Below, piece by piece: positions 1 to 6,866 of a stretch of 6,866 nucleotides of DNA. This DNA comes from a virus (taxonomy: Duplodnaviria > Heunggongvirae > Uroviricota > Caudoviricetes). The position numbers and the translations under genes were made by a program. The notes beneath the pieces were generated by a model that saw only the letters and a program-made list of their open reading frames with translations, ran no database searches and had not been told where the DNA came from. How positions within the stretch are numbered: position 1 is the stretch's first letter; every line of letters starts with the position of its first letter. Location of the stretch: the IMG/VR virus record IMGVR_UViG_3300000289_000108; one strand, written 5' to 3'.

Positions 1-36
1 CAAAAAGAGGGATAATCTGAAAGAGTTTGAATTTCT

Positions 37-240
37 TCATTGTTTGATTTCCTTGATGTACTTACTGAAAAGGCGAACAACGCCTGCCGGGTACAGCATG
101 GCAATGAAAATGCCCAGCAATACCAGGAAGGAGCTGTCTGATGAAATCATTCGGGGGAGTAGTCCTGCATACAGAATGAGAGAAACGAGGACGCATACCA
201 GCGCCCACATGTATGCGCGAAACCAGGTCTTTTTGTTCAT
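37..240 (-). CDS. small membrane protein, 67 aa, two predicted transmembrane helices
   Basis: ATG at 238-240 with TAAGGGA Shine-Dalgarno about 8 nt upstream; two hydrophobic stretches (WALVCVLVSLILYAGLL and FLVLLGIFIAMLYPAGVV); last gene of the - strand small-gene chain in this window. Confidence 0.5.
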   Translation of the reverse strand: MNKKTWFRAYMWALVCVLVSLILYAGLLPRMISSDSSFLVLLGIFIAMLYPAGVVRLFSKYIKEIKQ

Positions 241-251
241 GCTGCGATCCC

Positions 252-551
252 TTACTGGTTAAGGAAAAAATCAAAAACCTTGTCGATGCGTTGCAGCAGC
301 TCTCGCTGCATTGTTTCCGGTGTTTCCGGTTCGCCAGGTGAACCCAGTGGTGCACAGAAATCAGCGATTTCATGATGGAGCGTCAGGCGAATGGCTGGCG
401 CTGTGGTTCTGGCGTGCTCCAGTTCATCCAGTAGTGCCAACACGGCAGATGGCGAGAGCATTGCGCGAAACGCCAGTAATTTTTGATGCGTTGCCATTCG
501 TTGCAGGTCAGTCGCCAGTTCGCGTAGTTCCTGGTGGTTGATGGTGCTCAT
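252..551 (-). CDS. hypothetical protein, 99 aa, predicted helical
   Basis: ATG 549-551 overlaps the stop of the upstream gene (ATGA at 548-551); AAGGAA Shine-Dalgarno 8 nt upstream; no family recognised. Confidence 0.5.
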   Translation of the reverse strand: MSTINHQELRELATDLQRMATHQKLLAFRAMLSPSAVLALLDELEHARTTAPAIRLTLHHEIADFCAPLGSPGEPETPETMQRELLQRIDKVFDFFLNQ

Positions 552-793
552 GCTCTGGCTTCCTTCAGTAGCTGGTTAAACATGCGGGTGAGTGGGTTGC
601 TGCACCCGAACGGCATCGGGTTTACCTGGTAAGAGAACCGACCGCCTGTTTTGCGTTCTTCTCTGATGACTAAGCCGTCGCGCCAGAGTCGGCGTAACTC
701 CGCATTAATGGTTGTGGTTGGGGTATTCAGTGCTGCGGCGATTTCTCCACCGCTACAACCCGGATTGGCGGCGATGTAGTCCAGAATGGTCAT
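548..793 (-). CDS. small winged-helix DNA-binding protein, 81 aa, PapI/FaeA-like pattern
   Basis: ATG 791-793 overlaps the upstream stop (ATGA at 790-793); GGAG 8 nt upstream; motif ILDYIAANPGCSGGEIAAAL...LRRLWRDGLVIRE resembles small wHTH regulators (recollection, not a search). Confidence 0.5.
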   Translation of the reverse strand: MTILDYIAANPGCSGGEIAAALNTPTTTINAELRRLWRDGLVIREERKTGGRFSYQVNPMPFGCSNPLTRMFNQLLKEARA

Positions 794-993
794 CTGCGTG
801 ACTCCTGTACCTGTCGGATAAGGTTCACCCGCGCCACATTCGTGGCGCAGAAGTAAGTGCCGTCAGTGAGATAGATGTGATGTGCATCTTTTTCTGAACG
901 GTGTTTGTCGATAGTGGTAATCAGGCGTTCGTCGACCTCGTATTCGCGCCCTCTGGAGGTAAAGCGAACGACGGGAAAATGCTTAATTGCCAT
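790..993 (-). CDS. hypothetical protein, 67 aa (MAIKHFPVVRF...)
   Basis: Preferred start ATG 991-993 preceded by AAGAGAG; the ORF track's 1011 start is a TTG extension; stop overlaps the next gene's start. Confidence 0.45.
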   Translation of the reverse strand: MAIKHFPVVRFTSRGREYEVDERLITTIDKHRSEKDAHHIYLTDGTYFCATNVARVNLIRQVQESRR

Positions 994-1016
994 TACGCTC
1001 TCTTTGTCCAATAGCC

Positions 1017-1427
1017 CTATGCGTTAAATACGGCACGTTGCGTGCCATCAATGAATGCGGCCTGAGTGCGTTCTATCAGGCGGAGATTTGTCAGAACTTC
1101 TGACTCTCTTACGGGGTAAGGGGTAATCAGGTATTTGTCCTGCAATTCGGCGATAATGATGTATTGCTGTAGCTCCGAGCCAATAATATGAATAAGGTGT
1201 CCAATGTCAGATAAATTCAGTCTGGTGGTTGGTTGTGTTTTGAGAACCGTTAGTTCAGCATCCTGTTTTTCGATGATTTCGGCTGCTTCGGCGGTTACTC
1301 TTGTTATCATCATGGCCGTGGTGGCAGGCCCAATCATTCCTGCATTTGTTGCATCCTGAATGGCTCTGTTTGCGGTCTCTGATATATTTTTTAGCGCAGT
1401 TACAATGCCTTTTTCTTTTGCGTTCAT
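1017..1427 (-). CDS. hypothetical protein, 136 aa
   Basis: ATG 1425-1427 with GGAGA Shine-Dalgarno 7 nt upstream; clean ORF; preceded by a 93-bp intergenic gap inside the operon; no family recognised. Confidence 0.55.
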   Translation of the reverse strand: MNAKEKGIVTALKNISETANRAIQDATNAGMIGPATTAMMITRVTAEAAEIIEKQDAELTVLKTQPTTRLNLSDIGHLIHIIGSELQQYIIIAELQDKYLITPYPVRESEVLTNLRLIERTQAAFIDGTQRAVFNA

Positions 1428-1520
1428 TTTTGTATCTCCGTTATTTACGTGTGCGAATACCTCCGCTAATGCGGATGGTTTTCACGTTTTCTTGTTTAAT
1501 CTGGTGTTTTGTTTGTGCTG

Positions 1521-1634
1521 TTATTCGTCAGAGAAAAAACGTTCAATCTTTTTCACTGAATGAATAATTCGCATAATCCCAATGGCGCAGGCCACCGAAA
1601 TAATCAGAACAATCCATGACATAAATATACTCAT
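1521..1634 (-). CDS. small hydrophobic peptide, 37 aa, single predicted TM helix (MSIFMSWIVLIISVACAIGIMRIIHSVKKIERFFSDE); not in the supplied ORF track
   Basis: ATG 1632-1634 overlaps the TGA of the upstream 80-aa gene (ATGA); GGGGAA Shine-Dalgarno 6-8 nt upstream; hydrophobic core followed by a basic C-terminal tail. Confidence 0.35.
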   Translation of the reverse strand: MSIFMSWIVLIISVACAIGIMRIIHSVKKIERFFSDE

Positions 1635-1873
1635 GCGATATTCCCCAGCTTATACGGTTCAATATGTTCTCCGCATTCTGCGGCGCAGACGAGTTCGGAA
1701 AGTTCGTTAAGTGCATCCAGATCATCAGCGTAAAAAGCCACGTCATACAGACTCCGGATTGCCCTGGTCAATGAGTCACGGGCTGCGCGTTCAGCATGAG
1801 CGCCTGATGCACTTAAGCGAAAATAAAAACGCTCAAGTGCTTTGTTAATGATAGTTTTATATTCTTTGCCCAT
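1631..1873 (-). CDS. hypothetical protein, 80 aa, predicted helical
   Basis: ATG 1871-1873 with GGGAAAA upstream; stop overlaps the start of the 37-aa peptide gene. Confidence 0.5.
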   Translation of the reverse strand: MGKEYKTIINKALERFYFRLSASGAHAERAARDSLTRAIRSLYDVAFYADDLDALNELSELVCAAECGEHIEPYKLGNIA

Positions 1874-1893
1874 TGCATTTTCCCGGAAAACAA

Positions 1894-2008
1894 TTAAACA
1901 AAATCTCTTAATGGTTTACCTGATTCAATGCGCTCAATTGCATCGTTAATGGCCATGTATGCGGCGTGATCACCTGCATAGCGTGCGCATTCCTGTAGTG
2001 ACTTTAAT
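1894..2008 (-). CDS. C-terminal fragment of a hypothetical protein (...LKSLQECARYAGDHAAYMAINDAIERIESGKPLRDFV*), N-terminus lost in gap 2009-2175
   Basis: Protein-like open frame ending at TAA 1894-1896, 18 nt upstream of the next gene's start; more protein-like than the alternative frame that the ORF track extends to 1970. Confidence 0.4.
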
Positions 2009-2175
2009 NNNNNNNNNNNNNNNNNNNNNNNNNNNNNNNNNNNNNNNNNNNNNNNNNNNNNNNNNNNNNNNNNNNNNNNNNNNNNNNNNNNNNNNNNNNN
2101 NNNNNNNNNNNNNNNNNNNNNNNNNNNNNNNNNNNNNNNNNNNNNNNNNNNNNNNNNNNNNNNNNNNNNNNNNNN

Positions 2176-2221
2176 TGTAGGCCGAGGCTATCTCTACCAT
2201 GTTTTTTGTCGTTGTTGCCAT
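2176..2221 (-). CDS. N-terminal fragment of a hypothetical protein (MATTTKNMVEIASAY...), continues into gap 2009-2175; may be the same gene as 1894-2008
   Basis: ATG 2219-2221 lies 3 nt after the stop of the 116-aa gene, with GGGGGA Shine-Dalgarno about 9 nt upstream. Confidence 0.35.
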
Positions 2222-2224
2222 TGG

Positions 2225-2575
2225 TTAATTCCCCCGTGGATGCTGAAAACTACGTCCTGCAATTAAGCGGTCAACCGTGCGTAGCGCTTCGTACAATGTA
2301 AAATCCTGTCCGAACTGATTGTCGCCGTTGCTCAGTGCAAAAATGCGGTTTCCGGTAAACGGATTGCGTGGGCATTTGTGGACCACAATTCCAGCTTTCT
2401 CAATCAGCCAGGTATGCTCGCCGATTTGTTTTACTGGGTAGCCATCCGGCGTTGCGTGTGTTTCGCTCAGGCTGTAGCGAGAGTTGCTACGTGATGCACT
2501 GGTAGCGAAACGGTTAGCGTGGCGTTCCGCACCGTTGCGGAAGCGCGGCTGTGAAGAATTGCGCTGTAGTTTCAT
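2225..2575 (-). CDS. hypothetical protein, 116 aa, basic Ser/Arg-rich N-terminus
   Basis: Clean ORF with ATG 2573-2575 and a weak Shine-Dalgarno; first gene downstream of a 210-bp partly gapped intergenic region; no family recognised. Confidence 0.5.
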   Translation of the reverse strand: MKLQRNSSQPRFRNGAERHANRFATSASRSNSRYSLSETHATPDGYPVKQIGEHTWLIEKAGIVVHKCPRNPFTGNRIFALSNGDNQFGQDFTLYEALRTVDRLIAGRSFQHPRGN

Positions 2576-2785
2576 ATTAAAACTCTGTACCTTCGGTAAG
2601 GTGTACTCGTGTCACCTTGTATTGATTTGTGGTATTTTTTGTGTGTCTAGGACTTGGACTGGCCGGTTCAGGTCCTGGCTTATGTTTAATTAAATTGNNN
2701 NNNNNNNNNNNNNNNNNNNNNNNNNNNNNNNNNNNNNNNNNNNNNNNNNNNNNNNNNNNNNNNNNNNNNNNNNNNNNAGGTTTTC

Positions 2786-2977
2786 ATGTCAGAAGATAAA
2801 AAAGTTGTTAATTTGTTGAGTGACCTTAGTGCTGCTCTGGATAACATTAACCCTCCTAGGGTAAAAACGACGGGTGATAAAGACGCATTAAACGCAGAGA
2901 TTCATATATTACTGGCGTTAGTAACTGACAAAATTCAGCGTAAATACCCACCTGTCACACAACTGGTTGATTTTTAA
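2786..2977 (+). CDS. hypothetical small protein, 63 aa, low GC (about 37%); the only + strand gene inside the - strand operon region
   Basis: ATG 2786 directly after gap 2698-2777; followed by a GC-rich hairpin; convergent with the low-GC - strand gene starting at 3479. Confidence 0.45.
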   Translation: MSEDKKVVNLLSDLSAALDNINPPRVKTTGDKDALNAEIHILLALVTDKIQRKYPPVTQLVDF

Positions 2978-2985
2978 TTTGATTT

Positions 2986-3006
2986 ATGCCGGGCTGCTCC
3001 CGGCAT
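2986..3006. terminator. 8-bp GC-rich stem-loop (ATGCCGGG-ctgct-CCCGGCAT) between convergent genes; possible bidirectional terminator
   Basis: Perfect inverted repeat read directly; lies 9 nt after the stop of the 63-aa gene and 24 nt below the stop at 3030-3032; the flanking U-run is weak. Confidence 0.35.
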
Positions 3007-3270
3007 CTTCTAGCTGCCATAATGTCTCGTCACCTGATAGAGCAAAACGAAATGNNNNNNNNNNNNNNNNNNNNNNNNNNNNNNNNNNNNNNNNNNNNNN
3101 NNNNNNNNNNNNNNNNNNNNNNNNNNNNNNNNNNNNNNNNNNNNNNNNNNNNNNNNNNNNNNNNNNNNNNNNNNNNNNNNNNNNNNNNNNNNNNNNNNNN
3201 NNNNNNNNNNNNNNNNNNNNNNNNNNNNNNNNNNNNNNNNNNNNNNNNNNNNNNNNNNNNNNNNNNNNNN

Positions 3271-3479
3271 TTGACAACAGAATCTTTGTTTTCCAGTACT
3301 GATTTAGCGATTAGATATAGATGCCAGTAACTGGTTACAATTGTTACTCCTGTGATGTGTCGTAAATTAATTGCAATTCGTCCGTTATTATGTTTTTCCG
3401 CAAGGTATTTCAGGTTATCAATTAATGCTTGGTCATTTTTTGAAATAGTTATTGTGAAATCTGACGTGTTTGTTTTCAT
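3271..3479 (-). CDS. N-terminal fragment of a low-GC (about 33%) hypothetical protein (MKTNTSDFTITISKNDQALIDNLKYLAEKHNNGRIAINLRH...), continues into gap 3055-3270; the ISFCSIR-stop at 3030-3054 may be its C-terminus
   Basis: ATG 3477-3479; 69 visible codons without a stop; strong compositional shift from neighbours; the beta-strand plus helix pattern at the N-terminus loosely resembles ribbon-helix-helix proteins (inference only). Confidence 0.45.
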
Positions 3480-3588
3480 ACGATTNNNNNNNNNNNNNNN
3501 NNNNNNNNNNNNNNNNNNNNNNNNNNNNNNNNNNNNNNNNNNNNNNNNNNNNNNNNNNNNNNNNNNNNNNNNNNNNNNNNNNNNNNNN

Positions 3589-4123
3589 AGTTTTGAGCTT
3601 CTGCCTGTATAAACTCGCTTACCGTTAATGGTCTGGCAGTCTTCTTTATTAGCTGGAGAGAACTTCCTTTTCTGGCGGTCATACGTCCAGTAACTTTTCC
3701 AGTTGTGCCATTCTGGGGGCTCGTGCTCTGGTAGCTCATCAGCCAACTTGTCCCACTCTTTGGCGTTAAACCACCATACTCCGTCTGAGTTTTCATCTTC
3801 CGGGTTTGTGCGCGTCTNNNNNNNNNNNNNNNNNNNNNNNNNNNNNNNNNNNNNNNNNNNNNNNNNNNNNNNNNNNNNNNNNNNNNNNNNNNNNNNNNNN
3901 NNNNNNNNGAATGGCTACGCGCAGTGCAGATTTTGTTAGCCCAATATATGCCGCGCCTTTTTCCAGAGAGCAAAGCCCGGCGATCGGACCATCCAGCCGT
4001 AAAGTCGCTCCTTTTTTGTAGGAACGCTTTTTCTTGTTTTCTTCGTGTTCGTCGTCGTTGGCGGCATCAATGGATCCGCTGAGTGTGTCACTTTCCTGAA
4101 GTGGTTGGTGGTCAGATAACTCT
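3589..4123 (-). CDS. AlpA/Cox-like excisionase-family winged-HTH protein, seen as two fragments (3909-4123 and 3589-3817) split by gap 3818-3908; both ends lie in gaps
   Basis: HTH-like GAAYIGLTKSALRVAI, then across the gap a Trp-rich wing-like motif DGVWWFNAKEWDKL as in AlpA/TorI/Cox-type excisionases; first gene divergent from the repressor, as cox is in P2. Frame across the gap cannot be verified. Confidence 0.45.
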
Positions 4124-4260
4124 NNNNNNNNNNNNNNNNNNNNNNNNNNNNNNNNNNNNNNNNNNNNNNNNNNNNNNNNNNNNNNNNNNNNNNNNNNNNN
4201 NNNNNNNNNNNNNNNNNNNNNNNNNNNNNNNNNNNNNNNNNNNNNTGTTGCGCCTTGTGA

Positions 4261-4300
4261 TGGTTTGTTTTGGTTTGTTTTCTTCACCATGTGGTGAAGA
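4261..4300. promoter_or_regulatory. candidate operator region of the lysis/lysogeny switch: tandem decamer TGGTTTGTTT x2 (4261-4280) followed by an inverted repeat TCTTCACCA-tg-TGGTGAAGA (4281-4300)
   Basis: Both repeats are perfect and lie 23-62 bp upstream of the repressor ATG. P2-type repressors are recalled to bind direct repeats, but which protein binds which element here is not determinable. Confidence 0.3.
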
Positions 4301-4322
4301 GTGAAAAGAGGATACTCATCGT

Positions 4323-4664
4323 ATGGTGAACATGTCAAGAGATTACGCCAAAAAACTAAAGGCGATCAGAAATGCAGAAAAACTTACACAATCTCAGTTT
4401 TCGCAAGTAACGGGGGTTTCTGTAGGGACTATAGGGAATTATGAGTCTGGATATAAACCTGCGCGAATTGAGGTTGTAGAAAAAGTAATCCAAGTCGAGC
4501 GATTCGAAAAATACACTATGTGGATACTTCACGACAAAACATTTCCCGCTGCCGGGCAGGTTGCCCCGGCTCTCTCTCTTGATGGCTCTATTCAGTCGGA
4601 GGGCGATCAGGTTTCAATCGGTATTACCCAAAAATCACCCCGATCAGGCCGCAATGTTGGCTGA
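4323..4664 (+). CDS. phage P2 C-type immunity repressor, 113 aa
   Basis: AAGAGGA Shine-Dalgarno 10 nt upstream of ATG 4323; HTH region KLTQSQFSQVTGVSVGTIGNYESG and motif FEKYTMWILHDK...GQVAPALS match recollected P2 C (YESG, FTKYTLWF, GQIAPALA); immediately upstream of and co-oriented with int. Confidence 0.8.
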   Translation: MVNMSRDYAKKLKAIRNAEKLTQSQFSQVTGVSVGTIGNYESGYKPARIEVVEKVIQVERFEKYTMWILHDKTFPAAGQVAPALSLDGSIQSEGDQVSIGITQKSPRSGRNVG

Positions 4665-4733
4665 CTCTACACATTGAGCGAATTACATATCGCAAGGAGT
4701 GTTTAGTTAATTTATCCGTTGGAGGGGCTAATC

Positions 4734-5801
4734 ATGTCGATTAAGCAACTCAAAGACGGACGTTATCAGGTCGATGTCAGACCGCAGGGGGCGGAAGGAA
4801 AGCGGATTCGAAAAATCTTTGCCCTGAAATCAAAGGCTCAGGAGTTTGAGAAGTATGTGTTACAGAACTTTCATGACAAGCCATGGCAGGCTAAGCCAGC
4901 TGATCAGCGGCGATTATCAGAGCTGCTTGATGCGTGGTGGATGCTTGATGGGCGTAATCAGGCTTACGGGGATAGCTACAGGGTTAGGCTAGGGAAGGTT
5001 GTTCGTGAAATGGGAGATCCTCGCGCCAGTCAGATGACGCGAAAATTTATGCTTGAATATCGGTCAGAGAAATTACAGGCCGGATTAATGCCGTCCAGTA
5101 TTAATCGTGACTTATGCGTACTGTCTACCATGTTCACGGTGCTGATTGAAGCTGAGGTCTTTCACAACGCGAACCCTGTACGCGGTATACGAAAACTGAA
5201 AGTTCAGAACACAGAGATGGCCTTTCTTTCTGATGATGAGATTGAACGGCTTCTTGAGCGACTGGAGGGTGATGCGCGTCGTGTTGCCATTCTGTGTCTT
5301 TCTACTGGTGCCCGATGGAGTGAAGCATCGGAACTACGTGGAGAGCATATCGTTGGCAACCGGGTGACGTTCTTTAACACCAAAAACGGAAAATCCCGTT
5401 CGGTTCCTGTGGCGGATTCGGTCGTGCCTCTGATTAAAACCCGTCGAACGGGGTTATTGTATCAGGTTGATTATCTGAAGTTCCGGGAGATTCTTCAGGA
5501 GGTGAAACCNNNNNNNNNNNNNNNNNNNNNNNNNNNNNNNNNNNNNNNNNNNNNNNNNNNNNNNNNNNNNNNNNNNNNNNNNNNNNNNNNNNNNNNNNNN
5601 NNNNNNACGCATGTCATGCGTCATACATTTGCCACACACTTTATGATGAATGGCGGAAATATTGTTACGTTGCAACGAATCCTGGGGCACGCAACGATTC
5701 AGCAAACAATGACGTACGCTCATTTTTCGCCGGACTTCTTACAGGACGCGATCAACTTTAATCCGCTGGCTGAAAGTGTCCATAAACTGTCCATCGATTA
5801 G
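4734..5801 (+). CDS. int: P2-family tyrosine integrase, about 355 aa with an internal gap at 5510-5606
   Basis: GGAGGGG Shine-Dalgarno 6 nt upstream of ATG 4734 (the track's 4719 start is a TTG extension); MSIKQLKDGRYQVDVRP, PSSINRDL, AILCLSTGARW, HVMRHTFATHFMMNGG, TLQRILGH and QTMTYAHF match recollected P2 Int, including the catalytic R, HxxR, H and Y motifs. Confidence 0.9.
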   Translation: MSIKQLKDGRYQVDVRPQGAEGKRIRKIFALKSKAQEFEKYVLQNFHDKPWQAKPADQRRLSELLDAWWMLDGRNQAYGDSYRVRLGKVVREMGDPRASQMTRKFMLEYRSEKLQAGLMPSSINRDLCVLSTMFTVLIEAEVFHNANPVRGIRKLKVQNTEMAFLSDDEIERLLERLEGDARRVAILCLSTGARWSEASELRGEHIVGNRVTFFNTKNGKSRSVPVADSVVPLIKTRRTGLLYQVDYLKFREILQEVKXXXXXXXXXXXXXXXXXXXXXXXXXXXXXXXXXTHVMRHTFATHFMMNGGNIVTLQRILGHATIQQTMTYAHFSPDFLQDAINFNPLAESVHKLSID

Positions 5802-5822
5802 TTATAATTTGTGTTAATTTGT

Positions 5823-5873
5823 TCCCCCTGTTTTGGCTTATTCGTTGAAAAATAAGTAAATCATCAGGGGGAG
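5823..5873. repeat. nested inverted repeats (TCCCCCTG...CAGGGGGA enclosing CTTATT...AATAAG) just downstream of int; candidate attachment-site/core region
   Basis: Arms read directly from sequence; the enclosed GAAAAATAAG resembles the start of the P2 attP core as recalled (AAAAAATAAG...); position is as expected for a P2-type att site. Confidence 0.3.
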
Positions 5874-5884
5874 CAAGAAACGTT

Positions 5885-5908
5885 AAAGCGCCTGCGGGCG
5901 CTTTTTTT
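5885..5908 (+). terminator. rho-independent terminator (GCGCC-tgcg-GGCGC followed by a 7-T run)
   Basis: Perfect 5-bp GC stem extended by A-U pairs plus a U-tract, downstream of int or at the upstream host gene's 3' end. Confidence 0.7.
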
Positions 5909-5916
5909 GTCTCCCT

Positions 5917-5930
5917 TTGATACCGAACAA
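5917..5930 (+). promoter_or_regulatory. candidate FNR box of the dmsA promoter (TTGAT-accg-AACAA)
   Basis: 9 of 10 matches to the FNR consensus TTGATnnnnATCAA, about 240 bp upstream of the dmsA ATG; dmsABC is a known FNR-activated anaerobic operon. Confidence 0.45.
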
Positions 5931-6169
5931 TAATTACTCCTCACTTACACGTAATACTACTTTCGAGTGAAAATCTACCTATCTCTTTGATTTTCAAATT
6001 ATTCGATGTATACAAGCCTATATAGCGAGCTGCTATANNNNNNNNNNNNNNNNNNNNNNNNNNNNNNNNNNNNNNNNNNNNNNNNNNNNNNNNNNNNNNN
6101 NNNNNNNNNNNNNNNNNNNNNNNNNNNNTGTTACTGGAATCAATCGTGAGCAAGCTTGAGTGAGCCATT

Positions 6170-6866
6170 ATGAAAACGAAAATCCCTGATGCGGTATTGG
6201 CTGCTGAGGTGAGTCGCCGTGGTTTGGTAAAAACGACAGCNNNNNNNNNNNNNNNNNNNNNNNNNNNNNNNNNNNNNNNNNNNNNNNNNNNNNNNNNNNN
6301 NNNNNNNNNNNNNNNNNNNNNNNNNNNNNNNNNNNNNNNNNNNNNNCATTAACATTACCTTTTAGTCGGATTGCGCACGCTGTCGATAGCGCCATTCCAA
6401 CAAAATCAGACGAAAAGGTTATCTGGAGCGCCTGTACAGTTAACTGTGGTAGTCGCTGCCCGCTACGTATGCACGTCGTGGACGGTGAAATCAAATATGT
6501 CGAAACGGACAATACCGGCGATGACAATTACGACGGCCTGCACCAGGTTCGCGCCTGNNNNNNNNNNNNNNNNNNNNNNNNNNNNNNNNNNNNNNNNNNN
6601 NNNNNNNNNNNNNNNNNNNNNNNNNNNNNNNNNNNNNNNNNNNNNNNNNNNNNNNNNGTCTACAATCCGGACCGCCTGAAATATCCGATGAAACGAGTCG
6701 GGGCGCGCGGTGAAGGCAAATTCGAGCGCATTAGCTGGGAAGAAGCCTACGACATCATCGCGACCAATATGCAGCGCCTGATCAAAGAGTACGGCAACGA
6801 GTCTATCTATCTGAACTATGGCACCGGTACGCTGGGCGGCACCATGACCCGCTCGTGGCCGCCGGG
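6170..6866 (+). CDS. dmsA: anaerobic DMSO reductase catalytic subunit DmsA, 5' partial (continues beyond the window); twin-arginine signal peptide; two internal N-gaps
   Basis: [24 protein letters not shown] (Tat motif SRRGLVK); [68 protein letters not shown]; [61 protein letters not shown] all match E. coli DmsA as recalled, including the Cys-cluster motif. Confidence 0.95.

Follow-up and report, generated by a model that had tools for sequence, protein, structure and literature searches.

The window of IMG/VR record IMGVR_UViG_3300000289_000108 as the probable integrase-proximal end of a P88-type prophage in the serS terminator of Escherichia coli

In phage P2 (Peduovirus P2; NC_001895), the integrase and repressor genes int and C adjoin, and cox opens an early operon that leads to the replication gene A, with the promoters of the switch divergent. 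The genes ahead of A occupy 2.0 kb in P2, and A, encoding 761 amino acids (aa), ends 4.3 kb from the start of cox. Coliphage 186 (Eganvirus; NC_001317) is P2-like, is also without a homolog of P2 B, and has ten genes ahead of A, which starts 3.6 kb from the start of apl and 3.7 kb from the start of cI. In Escherichia phage P88 (Peduoviridae, Xuanwuvirus P88; NC_026014), the start of A lies 4.4 kb from that of cox and 4.5 kb from that of C. Induction with mitomycin C was used to obtain P88, and its plaques, as well as myovirus particles seen by electron microscopy, have been described (PMC5285337). Satellites of the P4 or phage-inducible chromosomal island (PICI) type combine an integrase with a small immunity region and are without structural genes. 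The locus compared with these systems here is a 6,866-base stretch of the record named above, referred to as the window at its full length, in which a P2-type integration and immunity module is followed leftward by small genes and no replication gene is seen. The original prediction, which measured this arrangement against P2, offered two readings: either the accessory early region is expanded and replication genes lie further to the left, or the element is degenerate or satellite-like.

The window is very probably the right-hand, int-proximal end of an integrated P88-type (Peduoviridae, P2-like) prophage of E. coli, located in the serS terminator upstream of dmsA, with A further to the left. 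Positions 1 to 4300 are the proximal two-thirds of its early lytic operon. The replication gene appears to be absent because the window ends before A and because P2 was used as a yardstick for all P2-like phages; the 5.7 kb that would separate A from the switch reflect the long and modular series of accessory early genes in this lineage. The basis of this reading is gene content, synteny, homology, the attachment (att) site, and intact catalytic motifs in the A protein of a proxy. A missing replication gene is a question of gene content and not a statistical signal, and a chance test is not applicable to it. Between window position 1 and the start of C (4323), no A-like gene and no large open reading frame (ORF) were found in the ORF list of the window or in two unmasked copies of this stretch, locus L001 (E. 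coli JNE082640) and locus L010 (assembly GCA_043602125.1). The stretch contains 12 small genes of 37 to 173 aa, 11 of them on the minus strand and one, a 63-aa ORF at 2786 to 2977, on the plus strand. The predicted count of at least 12 small genes with no large ORF therefore stood, while the predicted size range (37 to 150 aa) was too narrow and the divergence from the repressor does not extend to the 63-aa ORF. Similarly, the statement that cox to A fits within about 3 kb was roughly right for P2 but applies to P2 only, given the distances in 186 and P88.

Over positions 1 to 5904, L010 and the window agree at all unmasked bases, and the only two mismatches are at host positions 6029 and 6855. 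In this assembly, a 940-aa Phage_GPA gene begins 1,834 bases to the left of the first base of the window, at a distance of 5.7 kb from the start of C. The first of the two readings in the original prediction is correct. The order of genes in L010 is Band_7, Derepression, a 121-aa gene, the 940-aa Phage_GPA gene, ParM, Plasmid_stab_B, portal, terminase, and GPO, and the locus contains Q, P, and the start of O before it ends. The 940-aa protein matched Pfam Phage_GPA with an E value of 5.8e-132. The HUH motif is intact in it, and tyrosines are present at both positions aligned with Y450 and Y454, the catalytic residues of P2 A. Using the exact 99-aa Ea22-like protein of the window as a query (4 residues different from the JNE082640 copy), 24 contigs were identified, and seven distinct places were obtained with 10 kb of flank (L006 to L012). 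In all six places that reach far enough, SPFH is followed by one of two genes (a 76-aa "derepression" gene or a 206-aa Phage_ASH gene) and then by a 121-aa gene and a Phage_GPA gene. The last of these is 940 aa in length except in L011, where it is 703 aa with the contig end inside the gene; the seventh place, L012, stops within SPFH. Where the DNA extends beyond the GPA gene, it is followed by ParM, a Plasmid_stab_B protein, a variable cargo slot, portal, and the large terminase.

The distance between the switch and A was surveyed in 83 loci encoding a relative of the DUF4761 protein, one of the small early gene products of the window; these were from 80 viral contigs, Salmonella enterica, Escherichia albertii, and one further genome. 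Of the 77 loci with at least 4.5 kb of downstream sequence, 76 have a GPA gene following DUF4761 in the same orientation. The starts of C and A are 2.8 to 5.9 kb apart (median, 4.2 kb; n = 74), and the window type, at 5.7 kb, is among the four longest. The accessory early genes are modular, with SPFH found in 31 of the 83 loci and a cassette of a 140-aa gene and the 63-aa ORF in 11; P2 B was found in none of the 83. As the switch-to-A distance is this variable in P88-type elements, a view of 4 kb cannot diagnose loss of the replication module. A P88-type early region was also seen in NZ_JBQPOM010000071.1 (L017), titled Vagococcus sp. WN89Y, in which SPFH and portal are 100% identical to the E. 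coli type; its presence in an assembly labeled as Gram positive is probably due to contamination or mislabeling.

Several points weigh against the reading of the window as part of a complete P88-type prophage. The left flank of the window itself is unseen, and what is said of it draws on an assembly identical over the shared sequence and on relatives. The L010 contig is shorter than a whole prophage, and the complete element is known from JNE082640, not from L010. One of the 77 surveyed loci (L075) is without A, owing to an apparent deletion that joins early genes directly to baseplate genes. The candidate early promoter of the switch is a consensus match only, from a scan that returned 12 sites versus 9.4 ± 3.8 in shuffled sequence, with no enrichment. 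The activity and inducibility of this element would follow by analogy, excision, replication, and virions having been seen for its relative P88. The first and third of these points would also suit an element of the source strain that is a degenerate remnant, in which a deletion to the left of the window took A and the morphogenesis genes and left int, C, cox, and the small genes. We consider such a remnant improbable. The window runs unbroken into the start of SPFH at its left edge, and L010, identical to it over the unmasked prophage bases, goes on into A, ParM, portal, and terminase. In addition, A was kept in all but one of the 77 relatives and in every exact-Ea22 place that reaches far enough.

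A whole prophage, 99% identical to the window, is available in E. coli JNE082640, where it fills the gap between serS and dmsA and measures about 37.5 kb. Starting from serS, it consists of attL, hok/gef, ogr, D, tail genes, an invertible fiber region, baseplate, lysis, and head genes, followed by terminase and portal, cargo, the partition protein, ParM, A, the early genes, Cox, C, int, attR, and then dmsA. Using P2 proteins as tblastn queries, homologs of 21 P2 genes for head, tail, and late control were identified in it (Q, P, O, N, M, L, X, R, S, V, W, J, I, H, FI, FII, E, T, U, D, and ogr), and its lysis genes encode a holin, an M15 peptidase, a DUF2570 protein, and LysC. The presence of a P2-type morphogenesis set is thus established on relatives, for JNE082640 as a whole and for L010 as far as the start of O. 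Duplication of the att core and the empty site in K-12 fit an integrated prophage, and the JNE082640 element is a normal integrated prophage and not a fragment. The A-like, capsid, and tail genes and the second att copy that the original prediction advised looking for on the left were found in these two proxies, with attL beside serS in JNE082640. The early region was present in part in 1,410 of 5,426 complete E. coli genomes; in 255 of these, 80% or more of it was found. This prophage type is common and already annotated, and there is nothing new in the observation that A is missing from the window.

Taken alone, the window could suggest a P4- or PICI-type satellite that retained integration and immunity functions of the P2 type and depends on a helper phage for replication or virions, as it holds no replication or structural gene and its Cox-family protein is unusually long, at 173 aa. 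Such an origin is extremely unlikely. Unlike those satellites, near-identical copies of the element have their own replication initiator, encoded by the GPA gene, together with a P2-type set of head, tail, and lysis genes. The hallmarks of satellites, namely, primase, helicase, sid-, psu-, and delta-type, and capsid-redirecting genes, were not found in the gene tables or in Pfam and PHROG scans of the early region, and P88, which has these early genes, is autonomous. The suggestion of a degenerate or satellite-like element is therefore contradicted by the near-identical copies with A and the P2-type gene set; this set was found immediately to the left in L010 and JNE082640, and the small ORFs are conserved in a P2-like phage, at 85 to 99% identity to P88.

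The window contains ten runs of N, located at 2009-2175, 2698-2777, 3055-3270, 3486-3588, 3818-3908, 4124-4245, 5510-5606, 6038-6128, 6241-6346, and 6558-6657, with a total of 1,173 N. Their true lengths were determined by aligning the unmasked pieces to the JNE082640 chromosome and to the closer assembly L010. Each of the ten blocks was found to be 67 to 77 bases (approximately 73 bases) longer than the DNA it replaces in genomes that are 99 to 100% identical; in one example, 80 N stand where the real DNA is 5 bases. The six blocks within 1 to 4300 replace 94, 5, 143, 29, 24, and 49 bases, so that 779 N represent 344 real bases. Because of this padding, the region to the left of the repressor is 3.9 kb of real DNA and not the 4.3 kb first given, and no reading frame can be traced across the blocks. 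Two minus-strand ORFs, at 3793 to 4338 (181 aa) and 3030 to 3746 (238 aa), were rejected as artifacts of reading through padded blocks, and genes cut by N blocks were read from the unmasked copies. Where N blocks are padded in this way and do not keep the frame, neither the length of an ORF nor a distance that spans them can be relied on. That a replication gene lies within 1 to 4300 and is concealed by N blocks, as the 779 masked positions of 4,300 might invite one to think, can be dismissed, since only 344 real bases lie under the blocks, leaving room for nothing large, and the unmasked copies show small genes only.

Within the window, int and an adjoining gene for a small helix-turn-helix (HTH) repressor are divergent from a Cox-type first early gene, which is the P2-like arrangement. 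The repressor is a 113-aa protein of the P2 C type encoded at 4323 to 4664 on the plus strand (Pfam HTH_3, E = 5.6e-10; PHROG 147, E = 3e-28), and it shares 34.5% identity with P2 C over the full length. The candidate early promoter, TTGACA-N18-TATCCT, lies at 4309 to 4338 on the minus strand and points leftward; with 10 of 12 matches, it was the best in the region in the consensus scan. It is placed as P2 Pe is, with the -35 element overlapping the start of C; in P2, this element is at 25884 to 25889 and C starts at 25890. The tyrosine integrase gene is located at 4734 to 5801 on the plus strand (Pfam Int_N, E = 9.9e-28; Phage_integrase, E = 1.1e-18), and its product has a real length of 330 aa, as the N block at 5510 to 5606 represents 22 real bases.

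To the right of int, the 20-bp attR core AAAGCGCCTGCGGGCGCTTT was identified at 5885 to 5904 and is the serS terminator hairpin itself, and the same 20-mer is found at attL beside serS in JNE082640. The empty site in K-12 MG1655 corresponds exactly to the left flank of attL, one core, and the right flank of attR, and integration into the serS terminator hairpin regenerates the hairpin at attR. The host gene dmsA occupies the window from 6170 on, and UTI89 has the prophage at the same site. A tRNA gene was considered as the attachment site and rejected, as there is no tRNA in the window and attachment takes place at the serS terminator. The enterobacterial small RNA STnc130 was matched over its full length (Rfam RF02084; 136 bits, compared with a gathering score of 55) at 5876 to 6010 on the minus strand, in the serS-dmsA intergenic region. 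Its 3' end contains the 20-bp att core, and integration therefore falls in a terminator hairpin common to serS and the small RNA.

A working order can be proposed for these parts. In a lysogen, C would repress the leftward early promoter, in a P2-type switch that sets C against the Cox-family protein, with use of the candidate promoter being predicted. Upon derepression, transcription would proceed leftward through Cox, with putative roles in excision and control of the switch, and through the small accessory genes, presumably as a single transcription unit. The transcript would continue past the window edge through SPFH, the small "derepression" gene, and the 121-aa gene and would end in the 940-aa GPA-type rolling-circle initiator. 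By analogy with P2 and 186, A may then nick the origin and give rise to rolling-circle replication. As there is no B homolog, helicase loading would presumably depend on the host DnaC, as in 186.

The first gene of the early operon encodes a 173-aa Cox-family DNA-binding protein at 3484 to 4245 on the minus strand (6768 to 7289 in L010; PHROG 23196, E = 4e-116), with a Pfam Phage_Cox match over the cut-off at residues 58 to 129 (E = 1.9e-7). Two N blocks (3486-3588 and 3818-3908) lie inside this gene, and its start codon is under a third (4124-4245). The Cox-family protein shares 29% identity with P88 Cox, and no BLAST match with P2 Cox was obtained. Directly after cox, an AT-rich cassette spans 2786 to 3479 (7294 to 7914 in L010), with a GC content of 38 to 39% compared with approximately 50% in its neighbors. 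It comprises a gene for a 140-aa protein at 2984 to 3479 on the minus strand (7294 to 7716 in L010), with a GC content of 38.8% and an internal N block (3055-3270) representing 143 real bases, and the 63-aa ORF, which has a GC content of 37.5%, is annotated in both the L001 and L010 copies as well as being in the ORF list, and is oriented like C and int and hence convergent with the 140-aa gene. No Pfam, PHROG, or PADLOC match was found for either product. Among 5.8 billion proteins, the 140-aa protein has only near-identical E. coli counterparts, with no relatives detected outside E. coli and no functional lead. The 63-aa ORF is always accompanied by the 140-aa gene where it occurs, and the cassette is absent from P88. 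In L009, a different 156-aa gene in reverse orientation occupies the same position after cox, which fits a variable slot.

The cassette might be an undescribed accessory pair (a moron) that the lysogen expresses and that serves in, for example, superinfection exclusion, defense, or toxin-antitoxin activity, although we regard this as a doubtful proposal. If it were true, P2-like phages would have a third site for cargo, after cox, in addition to the known tin/old and Z/fun hotspots. Two hairpins were observed in its vicinity. One, GCCGGGCTGCTCCCGGC, at 2988 to 3004, is situated at the junction of the 140-aa gene and the 63-aa ORF and overlaps the last codons of the 140-aa gene. The other, CTAGGACTTGGACTGGCCGGTTCAGGTCCTGG (given on the plus strand), has a 14-bp stem and lies at 2647 to 2678 (7947 to 7978 in L010), between DUF4761 and the 63-aa ORF and just upstream of the latter; it was labeled terminator-like by the scan, yet the T tract after the hairpin is weak.

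The remaining early genes of the window are all on the minus strand. The 116-aa DUF4761 protein encoded at 2225 to 2575 (Pfam DUF4761, E = 1.7e-64; 92.7% identity to P88 gp04) is the conserved marker of the early region, with 265 relatives among viral contigs. It is followed by an 84-aa hypothetical protein at 1894 to 2221, whose gene is split by an N block (2009-2175; 94 real bases) and is an annotated coding sequence in L001 (21894 to 22148) and L010 (8404 to 8658); no family match was found for it in Pfam, PHROG, or PADLOC. Next are an 80-aa DUF4754 protein at 1631 to 1873 (Pfam DUF4754, E = 2.8e-54; 97.5% identity to P88 gp06) and a 37-aa predicted membrane peptide at 1521 to 1634, which has no Pfam or PHROG match but is 89% identical to P88 gp07, annotated as a membrane protein. 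A 136-aa protein with no assigned function at 1017 to 1427 (PHROG 9338, E = 5e-57) has no match in P88 and represents an optional module, its gene being found at variable identity across many related loci. A 67-aa protein with no assigned function is encoded at 790 to 993 (PHROG 3459, E = 1.3e-45; 85% identity to P88 gp08), an 81-aa MarR-type winged-helix protein at 548 to 793 (Pfam MarR_2, E = 1.6e-8, and HTH_24; 90% identity to P88 gp09), and the 99-aa Ead/Ea22-like protein at 252 to 551 (PHROG 4144, E = 8e-62; 87.5% identity to P88 gp10), for which the Pfam Ead_Ea22 match was under the cut-off. A second 67-aa product, a small membrane protein, is encoded at 37 to 240 (PHROG 1130, membrane protein, E = 1.3e-22; 98.5% identity to P88 gp11). 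The stop codon of its gene overlaps the start of the SPFH/Band_7 gene, the next gene of the early operon, which leaves the window at the left edge; only the first 13 of its 276 codons are included (1 to 40; mapped to 10512 to 11342 in L010). The SPFH protein matched Pfam Band_7 with an E value of 1.8e-30 (L001 copy) and is 98.9% identical to P88 gp12. Identification of the accessory genes as a defense system was rejected, since the PADLOC search was empty except for one weak match, to the 67-aa membrane protein (E = 0.0078), in which no stretch passed alone.

Further features were observed beyond the left edge. In L010, matches to isrK (RF01394, 65.8 bits) and to the C4 antisense RNA (RF01695, 84.4 bits) are present in tandem at 11456 to 11653, which is 905 to 1,102 bases to the left of position 1, between SPFH and the 76-aa "Derepression" gene (PF25738, under the cut-off). 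This tandem resembles the P1/P7-type antisense-RNA control of an antirepressor, and it could account for P88 being inducible by mitomycin C, as P2 is not known to be. The slot of the derepression gene is occupied by the 206-aa Phage_ASH gene in L006, L008, L009, and L011. The replication gene is followed immediately by genes for an actin-like segregation protein, ParM/StbA, and its Plasmid_stab_B partner (15284 to 16559 in L010 and 13989 to 15264 in L001). The two proteins share 97 to 99.7% identity with the P88 pair, and a plasmid-type partition pair is unexpected in an integrating P2-like phage. The cargo slot between the partition gene and portal, at approximately 16560 to 18400 in L006 to L010, matches the tin/old hotspot of P2 in position. 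It contains Fic and a Phd-like antitoxin in L006 and L008, HTH_37 and Gp49 (HigBA-like) in L007, and Rrf2 and Ogr_Delta in L009, and it is empty in L010.

Compared with the known phages, the window type has the overall architecture of P2, and 52, 35, and 31% identity to P2 were found for Int, C, and A, respectively. The A protein is larger than that of P2 (940 versus 761 aa), and the C-to-A distance is 5.7 kb here versus 2.1 kb in P2. In place of the P2 lysis genes Y, K, lysA, and lysB and the fiber assembly gene G, nonhomologous genes with the same roles are present, and the ParM pair follows A. No homolog of P2 orf78, B, orf80-83, or orf91 was identified by tblastn in L010, and thus the early gene set of Peduovirus was not found. 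Identities to 186 were 37% for Int and 35% for A. The repressor of 186 is of the CI type, with 192 aa, whereas that of the window is of the P2 C type, with 113 aa, and tblastn identified no homolog of 186 apl, cII, fil, dhr, orf79-84, tum, or orf97 in the window type. A further sequence, ON470599.1 (L014; vB_EcoM-569R5, "partial genome"), was considered as a viable phage with the same immunity module and rejected as a predicted prophage segment. It has kept approximately 11 kb of host genes (ycaO, focA, pflB, pflA, ycaD, ycaC, and dmsCBA) and stops within phage late genes, and it should not be taken as an isolated phage genome.

The gene order of P88 is the same as that of the window type: int, C, cox, DUF4761, small genes, DUF4754, and the membrane peptide, continuing with the winged-helix protein, the Ea22-like protein, the membrane protein, SPFH, derepression, the 121-aa gene, the 940-aa A, ParM, the partition protein, and portal. 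The products of P88 gp04, gp06 to gp15, A, ParM, and gp18 are 85 to 99% identical to those of the window type and in the same order by tblastn, with 96.7% identity for A and 99.7% for ParM. As P88 is a working phage with the same layout, the long early region belongs to a functional phage. The window type extends beyond P88 in having the cassette of the 140-aa and 63-aa genes after cox and the 136-aa gene, and the C-to-A distance is therefore 5.7 kb here versus 4.5 kb in P88. P88-type accessory genes, the 940-aa A, and the ParM pair, in P88 order, are the Xuanwuvirus-type feature of the element; the genus level of the International Committee on Taxonomy of Viruses is set at approximately 70% nucleotide identity over the whole genome. 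In a megablast search against P88, only window positions 1 to 2582 matched, at 92.3% identity, covering 37% of window positions 1 to 4700. The immunity and integration genes of P88 represent another allele, with 50% identity for Int, 33% for C, and 29% for Cox, which is 141 aa in P88 and 173 aa here, and the att core in the serS terminator was not found in P88. Judged by sequence, the element is a mosaic of a P88-type early and replication module and a different immunity and integration allele, which is about equally close to that of P2.

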